DNA of 35,022 nt, taken from the UHGV virus genome UHGV-0182056; one strand, given 5' to 3'. Source of the stretch: a virus. The notes beneath the pieces were generated by a model, which did no database searches, was not told the DNA's origin, and saw only the letters and a program-made list of their open reading frames with translations. Both the position numbers and the translations under genes were made by a program. This document shows positions 125 to 35,022 of the stretch, piece after piece; the first letter of the stretch is position 1, and every line of letters starts with the position of its first letter.

Positions 125-200
125 GGCCCCTTAGCTCAGTGGTTAGAGCAGGCGACTCATAATCGCTTGGTCGCTGGTTCAAGTCCAGCAGGGGCCACCA
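125..200 (+). tRNA. ileX: tRNA with CAT anticodon; sequence looks like enterobacterial tRNA-Ile2 (lysidine-modified CAU, ileX/ileY type); intact gene used as the prophage attachment site
   Basis: 76 nt with 7-bp acceptor stem GGCCCCT/AGGGGCC, D-arm AGCTCAGTGGTTAGAGC, anticodon loop CTCATAA, T-arm GGTTCAAGTCC and 3' CCA. Ile2 rather than Met is from recall of the E. coli gene and the yqjH neighbour, not from the anticodon. Confidence 0.8.
154..200 (+). repeat. attL core: 3' 47 bp of the tRNA, exactly repeated at 33978-34024
   Basis: Exact 47/47 direct repeat read from the sequence (GACTCATAATCGCTTGGTCGCTGGTTCAAGTCCAGCAGGGGCCACCA). Confidence 0.85.
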
Positions 201-6194: not shown

Positions 6195-7367
6195 TTACGC
6201 GCTGACCTGGCTGGCGAAATTCACCAGGTACTGATCGGTGATGCGCTGACGCAACATCAGGTTTTCAAGTGGCGGCACTGGCGTGTAGTCGTAGTCGATG
6301 GTGAGTTTTCCGGCTTTCAGAGTATCTTTGTCGTTCACCGACTCATCCAGCCAGCAATCACCACCAATGAGATAGCCCTGACTGACCAGGCTGCGCATTT
6401 TGGCGCGGATACCTTCGATAATGTCGCGGGCCAACGACGGGTTCAGCGGTTTGTCCACCGCCCACATATGCGCTTCTGCCATTGTGTCCATAAGTACCTG
6501 CGCCGTGCGGGTGTAGTTTTCGAAGGCAAAGAGCGGGTCATCACTCAGGCAGCGGGAACCCCAGAAGCGGAAACCGTCTTTGCGGATAAGGGTGGTGACG
6601 TCGCTCTGGTTCAGCAGTCCCGCATCTGTTGCCGTGTCCTGCAGATCCCAGAACACATCAGCAGAAATTCCGGTGACACCGTTCACGCCCACGTTGGACA
6701 GGCTTTTGTGCCATCCGGTCTGCTCATCAATTTTGGCGCGCAGACCAAGCGCACGGGCGGTGGCATATGCCGTTGCTTCGGCATTCAGTACCGTGTCCCA
6801 GCCAGTAAAGTCAGGCCAGATCAGCATCCCTTCGCGCTGGCTGAAGTTTTCACGGTAAGTGATCGCCTCCTGCACTGTCTTGCAGCCATACGCTGACAGG
6901 TAAGCAAACCCACGTAGGCTTTGCGCCACGCTCAGCAACTCAGTCGCAACGGCTTTGTTATCATGGCCTGGCACGCCGAGAATGCGCGGTTTAACGCCGA
7001 GCTGTGACTGGGCAGATAACAGAGCTTTCATGCCTGTTTTTTTACCTTCAGCAGTCACTGCGCCGATGATATTGGTCGTGGTTTCTTCTTCCGTTTCACC
7101 CTGCGGCACACGCACAACAACGGTCACGGGTTTTGCCTGGTCAGCGATGGCATCCAGCGAACGGGCCAGCGTGCCGGACTCACCCGCTTTACCGCTGGCA
7201 GTCAGCACATCAGTGATCAGCACGGGTTTATTAAGAGGAAACATTTTTGCATCGGCATCATCGCCCGTGCAGACCATACCCACGATGGCGGTGCTCACCG
7301 TGGTAATGGATCGGGTGCCTTCGTTGACTTCAACAACGCGCACCCCGTGGTGGTAATCCTGAGCCAT
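6195..7367 (-). CDS. FI: Contractile tail sheath protein gpFI
   Basis: 390 aa, sheath-like sequence, followed by the tube gene. Confidence 0.85.
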
Positions 7368-7443
7368 AGTGGCGAACCTCCTGATTGGATTAGGCTTCGC
7401 CCTATGTTGAAGTGATTGTGCCTGACAAACAGCTAAGCGCAGT

Positions 7444-7461
7444 TGTACCGTTATTCACACA
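7444..7461. promoter_or_regulatory. Candidate Ogr-dependent late promoter element (TGT-N12-ACA dyad) upstream of the FI tail operon
   Basis: TGTACCGTTATTCACACA lies 77-94 bp upstream of the FI start; nearly the same as the dyad in the O-P intergenic region. Confidence 0.5.
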
Positions 7462-7509
7462 AAATGACGGTATTTGTCTGCTTGCAGGGATAATCAAAAT
7501 AATGCTGAT

Positions 7510-22350: not shown

Positions 22351-23049
22351 TTATTTGTTTCTTCTTTGTTCACGCCTTGTCTTGGCTTCGATAAGGCGTT
22401 GAGGTTCAGTGTAAAGCCGTTCTAAAAAAAGATAGGTAAAATCTTCAAGATCCTCAGCAGCAGCTTTATCCAAAATACCTTCATGCGCTCCATCATTTCC
22501 GTCATCTTTAACGCATTCAGCTAGTTCCCTTAAAGCTTCAGGCAGTAGATGATTATCAAATAACCACTCCATTCTTAACCCTAGGCTTCTCCTTATTTTT
22601 TGCGCAGGCCCTTGCTCCCCATCAGGAAGAAGTCCTTTTGTGGCATAATCAAGGCAAAGCCTAAACATGGTTGCTGCTGCATTATAACAACCTATAGCCA
22701 AACATTTCGCCCCTTCCTCATATGCACTATTGATATGCTCAGGTAAGAACTCTGGTGGCTCCTCTACTGCTAAGTCTGCCGGTGATATAGGCCTAACAAC
22801 CTCTGCAACTTCCTTTAAGCCGAATATTCCACTTTCCCAATTATAGCCATCTAAAGTTTTATTTTTCGTTAAAGGTCTGCAAAGAAACATTGTCGTTTTA
22901 TGACACTCTCGGCAAACACAATAGACCTCGTACTCGTATGTTTTACCCCCGCCCAATGCATTGTAAACCCTAGTGCAATTCAGCCCATTCACATCAAACG
23001 CTATTTTTTGTGATCCACATCGTGGACAGTCATCCACTAACATAACCAT
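22351..23049 (-). CDS. Accessory protein: N-terminal Cys4 zinc ribbon plus alpha-helical C-terminal domain; possible HEPN/DUF4145-like fold; function unknown
   Basis: 232 aa, inserted between Q and cos where P2 has no gene; CPRCG...CRECH; C-terminal GNDGAH resembles the GN-AAH core I recall for DUF4145, but no Arg at the Rx4-6H position; strong RBS GGAGGAG; AT-rich. Confidence 0.45.
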   Translation of the reverse strand: MVMLVDDCPRCGSQKIAFDVNGLNCTRVYNALGGGKTYEYEVYCVCRECHKTTMFLCRPLTKNKTLDGYNWESGIFGLKEVAEVVRPISPADLAVEEPPEFLPEHINSAYEEGAKCLAIGCYNAAATMFRLCLDYATKGLLPDGEQGPAQKIRRSLGLRMEWLFDNHLLPEALRELAECVKDDGNDGAHEGILDKAAAEDLEDFTYLFLERLYTEPQRLIEAKTRREQRRNK

Positions 23050-23338: not shown

Positions 23339-23950
23339 CTACGTAACCACAGTTAATGTGTGCATCCTGTCTCGAATTGCATCACACGTCTCATCAAAAA
23401 GCTTGGTGATGGTTGTACGGTTCAACTCCGCCTCTTTCCAATAATTTTGCCCGTCAAATTCTGGATCGCTATGCTGAAACGATATTGACTCTGAAAGGCA
23501 TTCCTTCCGGAAACGGTCCAAGATTATATAAACCTCTGGTGAGATGAACGGTTTGTTAGATTCAACACTTGTGACAAAAGTGTTAAATGCATCAAAAAAA
23601 ACTTTCAACCTTCTAAATTTTCTCTCTTCAAATGGTTCGTTGGGGTCAACATGATCCAGCGCAGGCCTCAGCTTAAGCACGCTTTCTCTGGTTTCAAACA
23701 TCGAATTCCAAATGAGACTATATGCTGATAACTCCTTATCAAAATACGCTTTCGTTACATAAACAGAATTGTCTAACTTAGCCTTTATTCTTTCATTAGT
23801 TGCACTCAGTTGTGATTGAAATTCAGCAATATCTTTGTTTAGCCGCGACTTATATCTTTCTAAATAAACTTTCCCGATCCAAACAAATATGCCAGATGCA
23901 ACAAAAGACACCCCACCCAACGAAGCCAGAACTTTAAAGACTAAATCCAT
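23339..23950 (-). CDS. Accessory membrane-anchored protein of unknown function (N-terminal transmembrane helix, coiled-coil, cytoplasmic domain)
   Basis: 203 aa; hydrophobic segment LASLGGVSFVASGIFVWIG near the N-terminus; AT-rich; lies where P2 carries old/tin. Confidence 0.5.
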   Translation of the reverse strand: MDLVFKVLASLGGVSFVASGIFVWIGKVYLERYKSRLNKDIAEFQSQLSATNERIKAKLDNSVYVTKAYFDKELSAYSLIWNSMFETRESVLKLRPALDHVDPNEPFEERKFRRLKVFFDAFNTFVTSVESNKPFISPEVYIILDRFRKECLSESISFQHSDPEFDGQNYWKEAELNRTTITKLFDETCDAIRDRMHTLTVVT

Positions 23951-24332: not shown

Positions 24333-24566
24333 TTAGTGCAGCCAGCTGTCGTCTTCCCAAACCTGTTGCATAATTTCCATCACCCGCTTTTTGTCTTCAT
24401 CAAGCTTTAAGCCACTCAGCTCAACGCCGTTTGCCGACCCTTTACGGATGCGGATAGCGGTCTTGGGATAGATGGGTTGCAGGTTGCGGTAAAGCTCGGA
24501 CTCCAGAGCGTCCAGGGTAGACTGGCTAATCTTCTGCTCTTTATCGATCATTATTTCAATGCGCAT
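24333..24566 (-). CDS. DinI-like protein
   Basis: Likely start at MRIEIMIDKEQKIS... preceded by GAGG; 77 aa with acidic C-terminus (VWEDDSWL) resembling E. coli DinI as I recall it. Confidence 0.7.
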   Translation of the reverse strand: MRIEIMIDKEQKISQSTLDALESELYRNLQPIYPKTAIRIRKGSANGVELSGLKLDEDKKRVMEIMQQVWEDDSWLH

Positions 24567-24576
24567 AAAAGTCACC

Positions 24577-24765
24577 TCAGCTGATGACATCCATTGAGCG
24601 GTTGTATTCGTGGCTTCTGATTTTTGCCATGAGTTCATCAGTCAATTCAGAAACCCACTGCAGGGCCAGCCCCTTCTCTTCATCACTACACTCACTAGCC
24701 GCTACAAGCTTAAGAAAAAAATCAATGCGCTGGAGCTTCAAAGACTCCAAAAAATAGTCCTGCAT
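24577..24765 (-). CDS. Small protein (62 aa), first gene of the LexA-box-controlled operon; candidate Tum-like antirepressor (speculative)
   Basis: Start MQDYFLESLK preceded by AGGAGG; LexA box 45-60 bp upstream; 10-bp gap to the DinI-like gene. Confidence 0.45.
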   Translation of the reverse strand: MQDYFLESLKLQRIDFFLKLVAASECSDEEKGLALQWVSELTDELMAKIRSHEYNRSMDVIS

Positions 24766-28711: not shown

Positions 28712-29053
28712 TTAATTCGGCATGGCTAGCCGTCTGGGAAATAAGCTCACCACTGCACGAAGATGATTCATTACTTTAATCAACTCCCGCTTTTCGTCAG
28801 TGGTCAGCTCATTAATGCTGATGCTATGACGTTCAGCTGGAATTTTTGCTATAAAGAATATGGCAGCCAGTGCCCGTTTATTTTGTTCGCTATTAATATC
28901 CCGTGGATCACGCATCTCTTTAATAAACCGCTCAAGCTCTGACTCAATATTCAGGCCAAAAACTTTCGCCCTTAACTCCGCAATATGATTAAGTCCATTC
29001 AGGCGTTCGCCGGGGCTTAATGGAACAGTCGCCGCAGCGCCTTCAATAGCCAT
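28712..29053 (-). CDS. Early-region hypothetical protein
   Basis: 113-aa ORF between cII and the replication genes. Confidence 0.5.
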   Translation of the reverse strand: MAIEGAAATVPLSPGERLNGLNHIAELRAKVFGLNIESELERFIKEMRDPRDINSEQNKRALAAIFFIAKIPAERHSISINELTTDEKRELIKVMNHLRAVVSLFPRRLAMPN

Positions 29054-29247
29054 TTGTTCCCCCGTTTTTTCGTTGATAGTTCTGCCAGCAATTCATCTTG
29101 TGAACGGCACGGATGCCAGCGTTTACCATCCTTACCCATTATCCAGCCGTGACCGTAGTGCATTGCCGGACTTTGTTTTACCAGCAGCGATGCAAATGAT
29201 GGTTCTTTCGTCAGCATAAGCACCTCACAGCAAACCGAATGAAGCAC
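29017..29247 (-). CDS. Early-region small protein directly downstream of cII (position of 186 fil)
   Basis: 76-aa track ORF; start uncertain. Confidence 0.35.
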   Translation of the reverse strand: MLHSVCCEVLMLTKEPSFASLLVKQSPAMHYGHGWIMGKDGKRWHPCRSQDELLAELSTKKRGNKWLLKALRRLFH

Positions 29248-29734
29248 CGAGGCCAGTCACGGTATCAACTGCACTCGCCATCGCAGGGTTAGCCTGTAAA
29301 CGGGCCTGCAATGACACAGCAGCCAGCGCCATCAGTCGTGTTACAGAGTTAATGCTGCTGATAGCATCACGACGACCTGCACTGGTTTTTACATCGCCAG
29401 ATACCGCACCTGCAGCAACACGCCCGATCTCTGCGGTTGCGCTCATGACGTAATGTGGCAGTTTCTCTTTTGCCACCTCATTAATCGGTACACATGGCAG
29501 ACAATGAATCTGTGCCAGAAAACCATCTACCAGCGTTGAATCTTCAGTCAGATCGGTAAGCAGCCAGATTTCTGACGGCGTGAGCTGATGTGATTGTTCC
29601 GGGTTAAGCTTGTTACGCAGCGTCTGGACGTTCATTCCCGCGCGTTCTGCCAGCTTTGCCATGTTGTGACGCAGTGCGAAAGCCCGGCAGGCTTCATCAA
29701 AATGCGGATGTTTGGAAACACGATAATCAAACAT
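29225..29734 (-). CDS. cII: CII-like lysogeny-establishment activator (phage 186 type)
   Basis: 169 aa; MFDYRVSKHPHFDEACRAFALRHNMAKLAERAGMNVQTLRNKLNPEQ... resembles 186 CII as I recall it. Confidence 0.8.
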   Translation of the reverse strand: MFDYRVSKHPHFDEACRAFALRHNMAKLAERAGMNVQTLRNKLNPEQSHQLTPSEIWLLTDLTEDSTLVDGFLAQIHCLPCVPINEVAKEKLPHYVMSATAEIGRVAAGAVSGDVKTSAGRRDAISSINSVTRLMALAAVSLQARLQANPAMASAVDTVTGLGASFGLL

Positions 29735-29768
29735 GATGTAACACCTTTTCTATCCCAAAATGGAACTA

Positions 29769-30005
29769 TCAGGCTTGCATTGCGACTTCGCAGCCTTGGG
29801 CCGCTTCCATCGTCAACGCGAACATGTTGATTTCGATAAGGCTGTTAACTCCGGCTTTTTTCCTGATGGGAAGGCGGTTTTCCCGGATCATTTGGCGGGC
29901 ATAGCTAGGCTTGTAACCAGTACGACGACAGAACTCATCCAGTGTGATGAATGGCTCAGATATCACAAGGTTGATGCTGGGGCGCATTGAAAAATTACTT
30001 TTCAT
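29769..30005 (-). CDS. apl: Apl/Cox-like excisionase and lytic-switch regulator
   Basis: 78 aa, first gene of the lytic operon, divergent from cI. Confidence 0.7.
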   Translation of the reverse strand: MKSNFSMRPSINLVISEPFITLDEFCRRTGYKPSYARQMIRENRLPIRKKAGVNSLIEINMFALTMEAAQGCEVAMQA

Positions 30006-30106
30006 GATGCACTATTCCTCAGTTTGTGTTTAAAAACTTCACTATTCGGATGTATTCGCACATATACCGAACACCACAAAAGCGATAATAGGATCACAAT
30101 TGAGAT

Positions 30107-30721
30107 ATGTCAAACACAAAAGAAAACCCTAATGAGATTTCAACTTTCATTTTTCCATCTCAAAGTGGGGGAAGAGAGGCCATAACACGCATTCTTCAGG
30201 CTTATGGATTCAGCACAAGACAAGCTCTATGTGATCATCTCGGCGTCTCTCAAAGCACAATGGCTAACCGCTGGATGCGTGACACTTTCCCACATGACTG
30301 GCTTATAGCCTGCCATCTGGACACAGGTGTACCCTTGCTTTGGCTAACTACTGGTAAGGGCACTCCAAAAACCACGCCAAATGAAGATCACGGATTAACT
30401 TTGCAATTAAGCGAAATCACAAATGGGATTCTAAACAACACAACCTTGATTCATTATGACCTACACCTAATTCCTCAAAACACCACAGATCCGTTTCTTG
30501 TCAAATTTGAATCGACGACGTATCTCGTCAGTGAATATAAAGGCGAGATCAATGACGGCACCTGGCTGATTGAGATAGATGGTTTTGCGAGCATCAGACA
30601 GGTTTACCGTCTGCCTGGCGGGCGAGTTCGTGTTGAAAACGGCCCTGCATCATTTGAGTGTGCGGCCTCTGATGTAAAAGTTTTAGGGAAAGTGGCAAGC
30701 AAAATAGATAACGTGGACTGA
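30107..30721 (+). CDS. cI: CI immunity repressor (186 type)
   Basis: 204 aa, divergent from apl; N-terminal HTH-like region (STRQALCDHLGVSQSTMANRW). Confidence 0.75.
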   Translation: MSNTKENPNEISTFIFPSQSGGREAITRILQAYGFSTRQALCDHLGVSQSTMANRWMRDTFPHDWLIACHLDTGVPLLWLTTGKGTPKTTPNEDHGLTLQLSEITNGILNNTTLIHYDLHLIPQNTTDPFLVKFESTTYLVSEYKGEINDGTWLIEIDGFASIRQVYRLPGGRVRVENGPASFECAASDVKVLGKVASKIDNVD

Positions 30722-30745
30722 TATTAAATATCGTAAGGAGAATAA

Positions 30746-31294
30746 ATGAGAGTTTTAGTCACAGGCGTATTAATTTTGTCATCATTTGCTGCAATTGCAG
30801 CACCTGAACAATTCAAAAACATTAATGACTTGATGGAAAACTATAACGATTATCCAACTTATACCGTAGACGGTAAGGATTTTCCATCTTTCAAAATTTT
30901 ATCTGAAAAGCCTTTACACATCCAAATCTCGCCGCGCACTTTATCAGGGAGTTCAACGAAAGATATTAAGTACGAATCAGACAGGGCAGCCATTTACGCA
31001 GCATATCGTACTTTGTATCAAACGCCTGCAGACAGGGTTAAAGTCACAGTATTACCTATTTCAATTACCCCCCAGCCTCGGAAGGTAGAGTATATGACGG
31101 AATATAAATATGATTTTAGCATTACAAAAAAGCAGGCAATAAATTTACTCCGCAGACACAGCAATATATTGAATGAAGACCAGTTAATGTCCGCCAATGG
31201 TGAATGGAGCAAAGCATTTGAAAAGTGCTGTTACCTTGAAGAAGGTAAGCCCGGTTTATCAATATTTGCTAAAGAGTTAATCACGCAAAGGTAA
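30746..31294 (+). CDS. Moron: secreted/periplasmic protein of unknown function, apparently in the lysogenic cI-int operon
   Basis: 182 aa with N-terminal signal peptide MRVLVTGVLILSSFAAIAAP; AT-rich; stop 5 bp before the int start. Confidence 0.55.
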   Translation: MRVLVTGVLILSSFAAIAAPEQFKNINDLMENYNDYPTYTVDGKDFPSFKILSEKPLHIQISPRTLSGSSTKDIKYESDRAAIYAAYRTLYQTPADRVKVTVLPISITPQPRKVEYMTEYKYDFSITKKQAINLLRRHSNILNEDQLMSANGEWSKAFEKCCYLEEGKPGLSIFAKELITQR

Positions 31295-31299
31295 AAAAC

Positions 31300-32313
31300 G
31301 TGGCAGTAACAAAACTCGCTAATGGTAAGTGGCAGGCTCAGGTCTTCCCCAACGGTAGGGATGGGCGGCGTGTACGCCGCCTATTTGCAACTAAAGGGGA
31401 AGCTCTGGCATTTGAGCGATATATAAAAGACCAAACAATTGATAAGCCTTGGCTTGGTGAAAAAAAAGATAAGCGACGTGTTATTGACCTTGTTGATACG
31501 TGGTTTAATGCACACGGTATTACGTTGTCTGATGGTCAGAAAAGAAAAGATACGATGGAGTTTGCTTGCATAGCAATGGGTAACCCTCTTGCGAGTGAGT
31601 TTAATGCGAAATTGTTTGCCAGCTATCGTGAGCAACGTTTAAGCGGAAAAATTACTCGTTCCAACAGAGTAAAAGCAGTCACACCACGAACTGTGAATTT
31701 AGAACTGGCTTACTTCCGCGCAATGTTTAATGAATTGAAGCGTCTGGATGATTGGATGGCTCCTAATCCACTCGAAAATATTCGTGAATTCAAAATTGAT
31801 GAAGCGGAGTTGTCTTGGTTGACAGTAGAAGAGGTAAAAGTGCTTCTTGCTGAGTGCGAAAAAAGCAGAGCTAAAGACCTGTCGATGATCGTACAAATTT
31901 GTCTGGCCACTGGTGCTCGTTGGGGTGAGGCAGAATCCCTGTCTGGCATGCAAATCAGTCCCGGGAAGATCACCTTCACCAAAACAAAGGGAAAAAAGAA
32001 CAGAACTGTTCCAATAAGTGATGAACTATACGAAATGCTTCCACGCATCAGAACATCAAAACCTCTGTTTAAGCCATGCTACTCCGCATTCAGAACTGCA
32101 ATAAAAAGGGCCAAAATTGAATTACCTGATGGCCAGCTTTCGCATGTTCTTCGACACACTTTCGCAAGCCACTTTATGATGGGGGGGGGCAACATTCTTG
32201 TACTCCAACGCATCCTTGGACATACAGATATTAAGGTAACGATGCGCTACGCACATTTTTCCCCTGACCATCTGACAGAAGCAGTTGAGTTAAATCCTTT
32301 AAATCATCTTTAA
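31300..32313 (+). CDS. int: Tyrosine integrase (P2/186 Int family)
   Basis: 337 aa; C-terminal HVLRHTFASH...LGHTDIKVTMRYAHF catalytic region; GTG start. Confidence 0.9.
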   Translation: MAVTKLANGKWQAQVFPNGRDGRRVRRLFATKGEALAFERYIKDQTIDKPWLGEKKDKRRVIDLVDTWFNAHGITLSDGQKRKDTMEFACIAMGNPLASEFNAKLFASYREQRLSGKITRSNRVKAVTPRTVNLELAYFRAMFNELKRLDDWMAPNPLENIREFKIDEAELSWLTVEEVKVLLAECEKSRAKDLSMIVQICLATGARWGEAESLSGMQISPGKITFTKTKGKKNRTVPISDELYEMLPRIRTSKPLFKPCYSAFRTAIKRAKIELPDGQLSHVLRHTFASHFMMGGGNILVLQRILGHTDIKVTMRYAHFSPDHLTEAVELNPLNHL

Positions 32314-32346
32314 CTAAAAAAAGGGCGATTTCAACGCCCTTTTTTA
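32314..32346. terminator. Bidirectional terminator between int and the convergent cargo gene
   Basis: A-run, hairpin AGGGCG-ATTTCAA-CGCCCT, T-run. Confidence 0.6.
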
Positions 32347-32350
32347 TCAA

Positions 32351-33703
32351 TCAATCAAAAAAATCCTTTTTGAAATCGCTACTACTAGATAATCCAGGTC
32401 TTATTTTTTCAATAACATCTTGACAAGCCGCAGGTTGATCATCAAGTGCCTTGGACGCTTTTTCCTTTATTTTTGGTATATTATTAAACCTACCTTTCAT
32501 CATTCCATCCGGCCCATACGCACCCCAAATACCTGCAGCGCAGATATTCACTATCAATTCAAAACATTCAAGATCATTCATTAATAAAGCAATATCTTTA
32601 TCATAAACGCTAGCACTTCTAGCGAATGAGTTCGCCTCATCAAATGTTGAAGATCCTGCTTTTGAAAAAATATTACTAATTAATTTAGCTCTAGCCCATT
32701 CTTTATGCTTCACAACATTCATCAATACAGGGCTGAATTTATACTTATTCAACACATCATCAATATTATTCATAAAAAACTTATCTAATACAGCCTTGTC
32801 CAATGCCAGAAGACTTCTTACTATTTGAACAGGATGTCTCAAATATGTATGTTGATCTGCTGTACTTGTAGACGAAATTGTACTTTCAAACATTTTATTA
32901 ATTCTTAAATAAAATATATCATCTAAATCCTTTATCAAATTTGAATTTGTTGAAATTGACTCCATTAAAAACTTAGTTTTATTTTCATCTGAACTGCACT
33001 CCTCTAAAACCTGTTTTTTTATTTGTTGAAGAACTTGATCATTCAAAGGATTACTCGACAGTCCAAGAAGATATCTCTTAGCATTAACTTGTATCTGTTC
33101 GTTCGGATTATCAAGAGATTGGAGTAGTTTTTTTAATAGATAGGAGTAACCATCATGATGAAGATTCTTTACACCTTCATTTACTACTGTAGCATGATCT
33201 TGTATGTTTGTTGTAGGAAATAAATATGCATTTGTTAATTTTGATATAATTTCATCTGCAACTTGTGTTGTAGAAAGAATTGGTTTTGAAAGGAATCTGC
33301 CAATTGTTTCTGAAAAGACATATCTTGCTTCTTCGGCTGTTGGTTTGTGACCGGAAGGATGCGCTGCTTTGTTTCTAAGAGTTTTCAATACGGTTAGAAA
33401 ATCAGCATCTATATCAGTAATTATTTTTTCAGATTTTAAGCGATTCAGCAAATCATTCTCAAAAACCTTTTGCTCTTCCCTTTTTTTATTTATCTCTGCA
33501 AATATGGCCCTTGCAACTTTATTTGTCGATGCCATTCCATTTAGTTTTTTTAATAAATCTTCAAATATAGCGATAAAAGATAAAACAACACATGCGCGAT
33601 GAGCACCTGTCATATAGCAAGTTAGTGCTTCGCGCATATACTCCTTAAGCTCTACATCAACAATATCACTTATAAGTTCTTCCATGTCCCTCAAACTTGA
33701 CAT
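32351..33703 (-). CDS. Accessory protein: N-terminal HEPN-like (DUF4145-like) domain with an Rx4H motif plus a large C-terminal helical domain; candidate single-gene abortive-infection/defence protein
   Basis: 450 aa, strongly AT-rich, between int and attR; ...LTVLKTLRNKAAHPSGH... gives R-x4-H; RBS GAGGGG upstream. Confidence 0.5.
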   Translation of the reverse strand: MSSLRDMEELISDIVDVELKEYMREALTCYMTGAHRACVVLSFIAIFEDLLKKLNGMASTNKVARAIFAEINKKREEQKVFENDLLNRLKSEKIITDIDADFLTVLKTLRNKAAHPSGHKPTAEEARYVFSETIGRFLSKPILSTTQVADEIISKLTNAYLFPTTNIQDHATVVNEGVKNLHHDGYSYLLKKLLQSLDNPNEQIQVNAKRYLLGLSSNPLNDQVLQQIKKQVLEECSSDENKTKFLMESISTNSNLIKDLDDIFYLRINKMFESTISSTSTADQHTYLRHPVQIVRSLLALDKAVLDKFFMNNIDDVLNKYKFSPVLMNVVKHKEWARAKLISNIFSKAGSSTFDEANSFARSASVYDKDIALLMNDLECFELIVNICAAGIWGAYGPDGMMKGRFNNIPKIKEKASKALDDQPAACQDVIEKIRPGLSSSSDFKKDFFD

Positions 33704-33742
33704 ACTAACCCCTCATTTGGTTCTTTAAAAATTCCATCATAC

Positions 33743-33760
33743 CATACAAATGTTTGTATG
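33743..33760. promoter_or_regulatory. 8-2-8 perfect dyad (CATACAAA TG TTTGTATG) in the promoter region of the 450-aa cargo gene; candidate operator
   Basis: Perfect inverted repeat about 40 bp upstream of the start codon. Confidence 0.35.
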
Positions 33761-33854
33761 CTTTATTGGCAAAGTTTATTGTAACTTTAATGTCAAGCCA
33801 AATATGAGCATATCATCAGGAGGATGTTTTTCATCTCATGTAAGCGTTAGACGT

Positions 33855-33887
33855 AGGTAGCAAAATGGCAGCAAAATGGCAGCAAAA
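33855..33887 (+). repeat. Three tandem 11-bp repeats (GGTAGCAAAA TGGCAGCAAAA TGGCAGCAAAA); candidate integrase arm-type sites at the attR side
   Basis: Same 11-mer as at 269-290, same orientation. Confidence 0.45.
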
Positions 33888-33977
33888 CTATCCACTATGC
33901 TTTCATATTCCCCACTATTCGACGGCGCAATGTGTTGAAATTTAAGTAACTAATTGTTTTTCAATACTTAAGATTGG

Positions 33978-34024
33978 GACTCATAATCGCTTGGTCGCTG
34001 GTTCAAGTCCAGCAGGGGCCACCA
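33978..34024 (+). repeat. attR core: truncated 3' tRNA copy (47 bp), identical to 154-200
   Basis: Exact repeat; upstream tRNA sequence is absent, so not a second tRNA gene. Confidence 0.85.
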
Positions 34025-34035
34025 GATATAGCAAA

Positions 34036-34068
34036 GGCTGACGAGAAATCGTCAGCCTTTTTCTTTTT
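34036..34068 (+). terminator. Rho-independent terminator (native tRNA terminator on the host side)
   Basis: Hairpin AGGCTGACG-AGAAAT-CGTCAGCCT followed by a T-run. Confidence 0.6.
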
Positions 34069-34077
34069 ATATATCAG

Positions 34078-34842
34078 TTACTTTGCGTGCCAGTAAGCCG
34101 CTGCACGTACCCGCTGTGGGTCATACTGTTCCGCTTCAAAGCGGCGGCTTAAATTCTTAACGACTTTACCTTCGCCGGTTATCCAGATGAAGTAATCATC
34201 GGCAGGGATTTGCATCTGCGCCAGACGCGCATCTACCGCCTGCTCATCATGTGCCAGCCATTCGATATTAAAACCATCAAGGTGCGCGAGATAATCCTGA
34301 CAGGCGTTATCCCGCACGCTAACCAGCGCACTAACTTGCGGTTTAACGGCAAGTTTGCTCAACGTTTCCAGGCGGCGGCGCAGTGCGGGCATTCCGGATT
34401 CATCGCAGACATACAGCTGATACGCGTAATCTTCCGGCACCACCAGCGAACCGCGCGGACCTGCCACCGTAAGTTTATCGCCCGGTTGCGCCTGCATCGC
34501 CCAGCCGCTGGCGACCCCACCGTCGTGAATAAAGAAATCGATCGCCAGTTCATGGCGTAGTTCGTCATACAGCGGCGTATAGTCACGCGACGGTGGGCGT
34601 GGTCCTTCCGGCCAGACGATGCCCTCTTCCGTTACCGTTGGCGGCACAAAGTGAGCGTCAGGTTGAGGAAAGAAGAGTTTGCTGTGATCGTCAAAGCCGC
34701 GCGATGTAAAACCGTCCAGCGCCTCGCCGCCGAGGACAATGCGCTGAAAACCGGCGCTGATGCGCTCAACGCGTAACACAGTCAGTTCACGGAAGCGCAG
34801 ATCATTGCGAACGCGCTGCGGGTAGCGGGGGGAGTTATTCAT
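34078..34842 (-). CDS. yqjH: Host siderophore-interacting FAD-binding ferric-chelate reductase (YqjH/ViuB family)
   Basis: 254 aa; sequence resembles E. coli YqjH as I recall it; immediately outside attR. Confidence 0.8.
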   Translation of the reverse strand: MNNSPRYPQRVRNDLRFRELTVLRVERISAGFQRIVLGGEALDGFTSRGFDDHSKLFFPQPDAHFVPPTVTEEGIVWPEGPRPPSRDYTPLYDELRHELAIDFFIHDGGVASGWAMQAQPGDKLTVAGPRGSLVVPEDYAYQLYVCDESGMPALRRRLETLSKLAVKPQVSALVSVRDNACQDYLAHLDGFNIEWLAHDEQAVDARLAQMQIPADDYFIWITGEGKVVKNLSRRFEAEQYDPQRVRAAAYWHAK

Positions 34843-34893
34843 TGTTATCGCCTTCGTGATAGTAATCAGATATATCTAAATAATTTTCGTAAA

Positions 34894-34917
34894 TGATAAT
34901 GATTGTTAATCATGATA
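34894..34917. promoter_or_regulatory. Fur-box-like AT-rich dyad in the yqjH upstream region
   Basis: GATAATGATTGTTAATCATGATAA resembles the Fur consensus GATAATGATAATCATTATC. Confidence 0.45.
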
Positions 34918-34984
34918 AATGCAAGCGATTTGTAGAACTGATATATCTGAAGTATGTGAAGGCATTCAGTGCCATAGCAATGCT

Positions 34985-35020
34985 GCCGGATGCGGCGTGA
35001 ACGTCTTATCCGGCCTGGAT
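34985..35020. repeat. REP-like element (repetitive extragenic palindrome)
   Basis: GCCGGATGCGGCGTGAACGTCTTATCCGGCC resembles the E. coli REP consensus as I recall it; truncated by the window end. Confidence 0.5.
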
Positions 35021-35022
35021 GT

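Follow-up and report, generated by a model that had tools for sequence, protein, structure and literature searches.

What would a temperate phage gain from a secreted protein encoded between its repressor and its integrase? The question arises from UHGV virus genome UHGV-0182056, a stretch of 35,022 nucleotides that was analysed at full length and is called the window throughout, in which an open reading frame (ORF) of 182 amino acids lies at positions 30746-31294 of the plus strand, between cI and int. A preliminary description, made from the letters alone, had placed this ORF on the same strand as both neighbours, with its stop 5 nt before the int GTG, and these coordinates were confirmed. 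The available data make it highly probable that the ORF is real, that its product is exported and that it belongs to the lysogenic operon. The statement as a whole, namely that a lysogen-expressed periplasmic protein blocks incoming phage between adsorption and DNA entry, is put forward tentatively, with a likelihood that falls only just short of even.

The first step is to establish that the ORF is a gene at all. It opens with an ATG and ends in a TAA (31292-31294), and a Shine-Dalgarno sequence, AAGGAG (30735-30740, plus strand), stands 5 nt before the start codon in an unstructured 24-nt spacer. Homologous proteins fall into 25 clusters of 46-97% identity and near-equal length (175-186 amino acids), and their alignment has a mean column identity of 65%, with 25 invariant residues. 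The ratio of non-synonymous to synonymous substitution rates (dN/dS) is 0.12-0.2 wherever the synonymous rate is unsaturated. Because a good ribosome-binding site, these ratios and homologues of constant length come together, the ORF is a real gene under purifying selection and not a chance reading frame. Its AT-richness, which had been noticed early, is evident against the prophage as a whole (37.9% versus 51.1% G+C), but goes only moderately beyond that of its operon partners cI (44.7%) and int (43.8%). The identical protein is encoded by 113 contigs, and 910 encode a close variant (E. coli, Salmonella, Citrobacter and other Enterobacteriaceae), where every copy bears the name 'hypothetical protein'; the exact cI-ORF-int segment occurs in only two of 5,426 complete E. 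coli genomes.

The surroundings of the gene indicate when it would be expressed. Upstream lies a repressor gene of the 186 type, cI (30107-30721, plus strand), with the Pfam domains PF07022 (Phage_CI_repr) and PF16452 (Phage_CI_C), and downstream a P2/186-type tyrosine integrase gene, int (31300-32313, plus strand; PF24624 and PF00589), whose ribosome-binding site is located inside the 3' end of the ORF. Directly after int follows a bidirectional intrinsic terminator, A7-GGGCG-loop-CGCCC-T6 (32317-32345; folding free energy -14.6 kcal/mol, z -5.3). On the other side, a consensus scan identified a pR-like lytic promoter, TTGACA-17-TATTAT (30085-30113, minus strand; 11/12), that overlaps the cI start codon. 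A candidate pL, TTGAAA-17-CACTAT (29987-30015, plus strand), is weak, was read by eye below the scan threshold and stands face-to-face with pR as in phage 186.

Specifically, the spacers of 24 nt between the cI stop and the ORF and of 5 nt between the ORF and int leave no room for a promoter or terminator beside the gene. Between cI and int, nothing resembling a promoter or terminator turned up in the consensus scan, and the cI-ORF spacer folds no better than its shuffles (z 0.05). In phage 186, the annotated lysogenic operon runs from pL through cI, int and orf69 to a terminator, with cI and int abutting. The window has the anatomy of such a pL operon, with cI, ORF and int on one strand, no internal terminator, a terminator after int and a face-to-face pR, and the ORF is an insert in it between cI and int. 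Co-expression with cI in the lysogen, which the preliminary description had read from the gene's placement, is therefore well founded anatomically and probably takes place. By analogy only, in a P2-like Salmonella prophage, transcripts of repressor and integrase were present under all conditions (Owen et al. 2020, PMC7067206). A perfect AT-rich palindrome, GATATT-A-AATATC (30720-30732), overlaps the cI stop in the cI-ORF spacer. It is shared only by the closest relatives and forms no stable RNA structure; it might bind a protein or be functionless. The AT-rich spacer palindrome GATATTAAATATC was considered as an operator or terminator and rejected, being conserved only in close relatives and lacking a stable fold.

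If the gene is expressed in the lysogen, the next question is where its product goes. The N-terminus, MRVLVTGVLILSSFAAIA followed by APEQ, has an arginine at position 2, an uncharged hydrophobic core and A-I-A at positions -3 to -1, ahead of Ala19-Pro20. A rule-based check for classical Sec signals cleaved by signal peptidase I (SPase I) looked for a positive n-region, an uncharged hydrophobic h-region of about 10-15 residues and small residues at -3 and -1, and found all three in the arrangement MR-VLVTGVLILSSFA-AIA followed by AP. Residues 1-18 (30746-30799, plus strand) are thus the predicted signal peptide, with SPase I cleavage between AIA and AP, while 30800-31294 would encode a mature alpha/beta domain of about 164 amino acids together with the stop codon, as delimited by alignment and structure model.

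The signal peptide that the preliminary description had recognised is kept in 26 of 26 close homologues: all carry one to three K/R within the first six residues, no D/E before the cleavage site and Ala at -1, and 25 of them have A, V, T or S at -3. A conserved integrase leader whose homologues lack a signal peptide, one of the cases that had been named as fatal to the proposal, is contradicted by its presence in every close homologue. The least conserved stretch among these 26 proteins is formed by the first 12 positions (47% versus 68% for the mature part), which is the usual pattern of a signal peptide. The same check found no lipobox, [LVI][ASTG][GA]C with Cys at +1, because there is no Cys near the N-terminus; residues 1-160 contain none, and the only two are C161 and C162. 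Most plausibly, then, the product is soluble, is exported by Sec and, once cleaved as predicted, resides in the periplasm with a length of about 164 amino acids.

The wider family points the same way. Among 149 inspected members, whose export classes were called by a crude heuristic, 140 have an export or anchor element ahead of the domain (81 an SPase I-like signal, 35 a lipobox and 24 a transmembrane anchor), and the domain would therefore be extracytoplasmic throughout the family. Of the nine that remain, five or more begin within the domain itself, as though the gene had been called too short. In distant homologues, a lipobox or transmembrane anchor occupies the position equivalent to the signal peptide of the ORF. 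Were the hydrophobic N-terminus nonetheless misread as a signal peptide, the ORF could encode a cytoplasmic nuclease or defence effector resembling the PD-(D/E)XK superfamily; the protein shows neither a conserved D...(D/E)xK set on core beta-strands nor a significant fold match, and this explanation is disfavoured as extremely improbable.

What kind of protein is exported? When a profile was searched against 1.84 billion cluster representatives, 228 relatives scored E<1e-3, and for 140 of these E was below 1e-10. That the sequence belongs to no recognised family, as had been stated at the outset, held up in every library: Pfam, PHROG, NCBIfam and PADLOC gave no match for the protein or for 54 family members, PADLOC 2.0 returning zero families for the ORF at E<=1. 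A tblastn search of 50,697 phage genomes found no match either, and the profile run against PDB sequences gave noise only (E>0.2). The AlphaFold2 model built from the homologue alignment is confident (predicted local distance difference test score, pLDDT, 87.8; predicted template modelling score, pTM, 0.83), with only residues 1-13 disordered (pLDDT <50). It describes an alpha/beta domain composed of short strands, a long helix (71-92), four strands and C-terminal helices. No solved or viral structure matches this model, which resembles none of the solved immunity proteins or lysozyme inhibitors. Homology search and structure prediction, both of which had been suggested as checks, hence yield conserved homologues and a confident model that correspond to no known family or fold.

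The family motifs are DY..FK.LS..PLHIQ.SP, A.YA.YR and VTV.P., and in the wider family only D35, P56, T93 and P104 are near-universal; a conserved set of catalytic-type residues is absent there. A Pfam search of ten multi-domain relatives, from whose fused domains a function might have been borrowed, gave no match. As such, the ORF represents a new, unannotated and widespread extracytoplasmic domain family. As a side observation, recurrent fused extracytoplasmic regions without a Pfam match occur in the middle of P0036, P0079 and P0084 and at the C-terminus of P0050, P0098 and P0105, and P0084 has an additional N-terminal cytoplasmic zinc ribbon; the fused regions of such distant members may be further unannotated domains.

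The position of the gene beside the repressor is conserved across Peduoviridae. It stands directly after a repressor gene in all six divergent loci first examined (Serratia, Salmonella, metagenomic enterobacteria and Plesiomonas) and in all 38 loci from IMG/VR and GTDB, in 35 cases behind a 186-type cI and in three (L053-L055) behind an HTH_3 repressor; the contig collections were scanned with alignments A1 and A3, alignment A2 being too divergent for the scan. In 39 of these 44 loci, the very next gene is int. In the Plesiomonas loci L008 and L058, about 1 kb of extra sequence intervenes, which in L008 is a called ORF of 299 amino acids (6609-7508), and no int was found downstream of the gene in L053-L055.

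Beyond these loci, Yersinia-type P2-like prophages carry relatives of 28-32% identity in a repressor-X-int arrangement, X being the family member, with a 122-amino-acid HTH_3 repressor that is not related to 186 CI. The relative in high-GC P2-like prophages lies 16 nt after an HTH_3 repressor of 126-131 amino acids and is followed by gpD, gpU and tape-measure genes, with no int downstream, and the same repressor-X pair is found in eight of 25 metagenomic loci. The neighbourhoods of 25 distant homologues comprise 140 ORFs, in which the Pfam families that appear repeatedly are HTH_3/HTH_31 (9), Phage_GPD (5), GpU (4), tape measure (4), Ogr (4) and CII (3), and no conserved toxin or other partner recurs. 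The constant partner of the ORF family is thus the prophage repressor, of two classes across Peduoviridae, and since a widespread family keeps its repressor-adjacent position, the gene is not a one-off acquisition.

The association with the repressor extends to sequence divergence. In loci L022-L058, compared with window positions 29225-32313, the identity of the ORF varies with that of cI more closely than with that of int or cII. In the mosaic L029-L039, for instance, cII is 96% and int 87% identical to the window, cI 50-55% and the ORF 60%. Because ORF identity tracks cI, the ORF appears to travel with the immunity module. This implies, as judged from identity patterns, putative recombination between apl and cI and between the ORF and int, with cI and the ORF forming what would be a single mobile immunity cassette.

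At the same time, the gene is accessory, for its slot is vacant or differently filled in related phages. In phage 186, SopEPhi and Klebsiella phage ST13-OXA48phi12.1, cI abuts int, and elsewhere the interval contains other cargo: a 558-amino-acid 'chromosome segregation ATPase' in vB_EcoM-813R9 (L010, 4115-5791), a 349-amino-acid hypothetical protein in Klebsiella phage 4LV2017 (L086, 3552-4601), and orf2 plus glo in K139. One metagenomic prophage carries an FRG-domain protein after int (L005, 7582-8493). The preliminary description had called the gene a moron, which suits its accessory status and deviant G+C but not its expression signals: it has no promoter and terminator of its own and is an insert in the repressor operon.

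A gene so tightly packed against int might also serve the phage in cis, by helping integration or excision, by setting int expression through translational coupling, or by changing the envelope for lysogeny or release. The gap to int is 4-8 nt in most homologues, the int ribosome-binding site is embedded in the ORF, and ORF identity tracks the immunity type of cI more than int or cII. Set against this, a protein exported as predicted would have no contact with Int, CI or DNA, and the three phages in which cI abuts int manage without it. Moreover, the high-GC P2-like homologue follows a repressor with no int downstream, and the low dN/dS extends across the whole mature domain, as expected for selection on the protein and not just on a leader. 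A cis function is accordingly held to be improbable, if less so than a cytoplasmic nuclease.

A periplasmic action on behalf of the lysogen is the reading we prefer, and the closest analogue is found in the same slot of another phage. K139, a P2/186-related phage of Vibrio cholerae (Peduoviridae), encodes Glo between cI and int in its lysogenic operon. According to its GenBank annotation (NC_003313, K139p02), Glo is a 'periplasmic protein; involved in phage exclusion'; it is small and has an N-terminal signal peptide, and the product of the ORF is likewise periplasmic by prediction. The two differ in length (137 amino acids for Glo, 182 for the ORF), and the K139 slot also holds orf2, in the order cI-orf2-glo-int. 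Homology was rejected, as hhalign gave a probability of 1.1% and aligned only 14 signal-peptide columns. Glo is thus an analogue without being a homologue.

Exclusion genes that share a transcript with the repressor are familiar from lambda rexA/rexB and others, which are accessory and, having no separate promoter, owe their expression in the lysogen to that transcript. The ORF, judged from its gene layout, is likewise accessory within the repressor operon, but the Rex proteins act in the cytoplasm or inner membrane by abortive infection, unlike the soluble exported domain encoded here, and there is no homology between them. A second set of comparators acts at the envelope. T5 Llp, phi80/T1 Cor, TP-J34 Ltp, T4 Sp/Imm, P22 SieA and HK97 gp15 block receptor use or DNA entry outside the cytoplasm (PMC9586334, PMC3952083 and PMC10883804). 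Llp, Cor and Ltp are lipoproteins, whereas the ORF protein has no lipobox Cys, and SieA, gp15 and Imm are membrane proteins, unlike the soluble ORF protein. Neither a sequence match nor a fold match links the ORF to these envelope exclusion proteins.

P2-like prophages, in turn, carry cargo and defence genes in defined slots, including the int-att and int-primase intervals (Rousset et al. 2022, PMC9122126; PMC13586616). The window shares this prophage backbone, and its PD-T7-3-like and PD-T7-4-like genes occupy two such slots. The known cargo, however, is made up of recognised defence systems that act in the cytoplasm and bring their own expression signals, whereas the ORF encodes an exported single-domain protein that resides in the repressor operon and is foreign to PADLOC.

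The data are compatible with a model in which transcription from pL through cI, the ORF and int to the terminator would supply the protein continuously along with the repressor, int translation possibly being coupled to that of the ORF. In the periplasm, the protein would act by binding and not as an enzyme, as the lack of a conserved catalytic-type residue set suggests. It may then act in superinfection exclusion, interfering with an incoming phage at a step after adsorption and before DNA entry; the argument comes from the annotated role of Glo, a non-homologous periplasmic protein in the same cI-int slot. Two further genes of the prophage, one PD-T7-3-like (between int and attR) and one PD-T7-4-like (in the gpA-portal hotspot), were counted in favour of exclusion. 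Taken by itself, an action in phage exclusion is possible and drawn from analogy, with chances somewhat below even.

The absence of a conserved catalytic-type residue set would also suit a binder or inhibitor aimed at something other than phage, and the main rival is that the gene is a periplasmic fitness or protection factor carried for lysogenic conversion. It could be, for example, an orphan immunity protein or an inhibitor acting against peptidoglycan hydrolases delivered by type VI secretion systems (T6SS) or bacteriocins, against tailocins or against host lysozyme. Many homologues lie outside prophages, in accessory islands, as secreted, lipoprotein or membrane-anchored forms: one is beside a Tox-MPTase3 toxin-domain gene and SIR2 (L019), one in a restriction-like island (L018), one among PIN/MazE toxin-antitoxin pairs (L020) and one beside ankyrin, phospholipase and TIR genes (L015). 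Yet what recurs among the 140 neighbour ORFs is not a toxin or partner but HTH repressors and P2 tail and regulatory genes, the model has no structural likeness to solved immunity proteins or lysozyme inhibitors, and Glo, the sole characterised occupant of the slot, is annotated as an exclusion factor. Protection against non-phage threats is on balance unlikely, although far less so than a cis function.

A bolder version of the exclusion reading would make the ORF the founding member of a new fold family, whose proteins confer immunity by blocking entry in the periplasm, are encoded beside Peduoviridae repressors and attach to a conserved part of the contractile-tail injection apparatus. This is doubtful, slightly more so than protection against non-phage threats. 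If it were true, the target would be the spike, the tape measure or the tube tip while crossing the periplasm; heteroimmune P2/186-like phages, and possibly R-type tailocins too, would be excluded; and the chromosomal homologues that are lipoproteins or membrane-anchored would be domesticated versions of an envelope-level defence.

These findings bear on how prophage defence is catalogued. What has been recorded as defence cargo of P2-like prophages is, with few exceptions, cytoplasmic and located in self-contained hotspots, and an exported family within the repressor operon escapes every annotation library tried. The type of role, a repressor-cotranscribed, envelope-located accessory protein of a prophage, is already known; the family that fills it is new. 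Should an envelope-level block be confirmed, K139 Glo would be joined by a second example that is not its homologue, and the field would gain a tractable model, in E. coli, of how contractile-tailed phages are stopped in the periplasm, as well as a function for a family of at least 228 cluster representatives. Should the protein instead protect against lysozyme, bacteriocins or T6SS effectors, a new lysogenic-conversion trait would be gained.

The gene resides in a complete prophage of about 33.8 kb and of the 186/P2 type (Peduoviridae), which the window holds between 47-bp direct repeats. The left copy, attL (154-200, plus strand), lies in the 3' end of a tRNA gene (125-200) with a CAU anticodon between mug and nfeF, which ARAGORN calls Met and RefSeq, for the same gene, tRNA-Ile; the exact second copy, attR, is at 33978-34024 (plus strand). 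The flanks are E. coli-like, with nfeF at 34078-34842. In the right arm, dam, a traR/dksA-like gene, DUF2732, DUF5347, fil, cII and an apl-like gene on the minus strand precede cI, the ORF and int on the plus strand. No RNA family emerged when 29000-35022 was scanned with Rfam. Two complete E. coli genomes, PSS-07 and 28A18CPO003A, retain only a deleted prophage remnant at the same att site, which includes cI, the 182-amino-acid ORF, int and the PD-T7-3-like gene.

The latter is a 450-amino-acid ORF between int and attR (32351-33703, minus strand), convergent with int and of low G+C content (32.5%, and 22% at third codon positions), which has a DUF4145 domain and matches the PADLOC PD-T7-3 model (E 2.9e-16). 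It is probably an anti-phage gene in the int-att hotspot known from P2-like prophages. A second DUF4145 protein, of 232 amino acids (22351-23049, minus strand), lies in the gpA-portal (tin/old-type) hotspot and weakly matches PD-T7-4 (E 1.2e-6), and the adjoining 203-amino-acid ORF (23339-23950, minus strand) belongs to no family. Finally, a DinI-like protein of 101 amino acids (24333-24638, minus strand) is encoded at the position of Tum, the SOS-induced antirepressor of 186, which suggests by analogy that the prophage may be SOS-inducible like 186.
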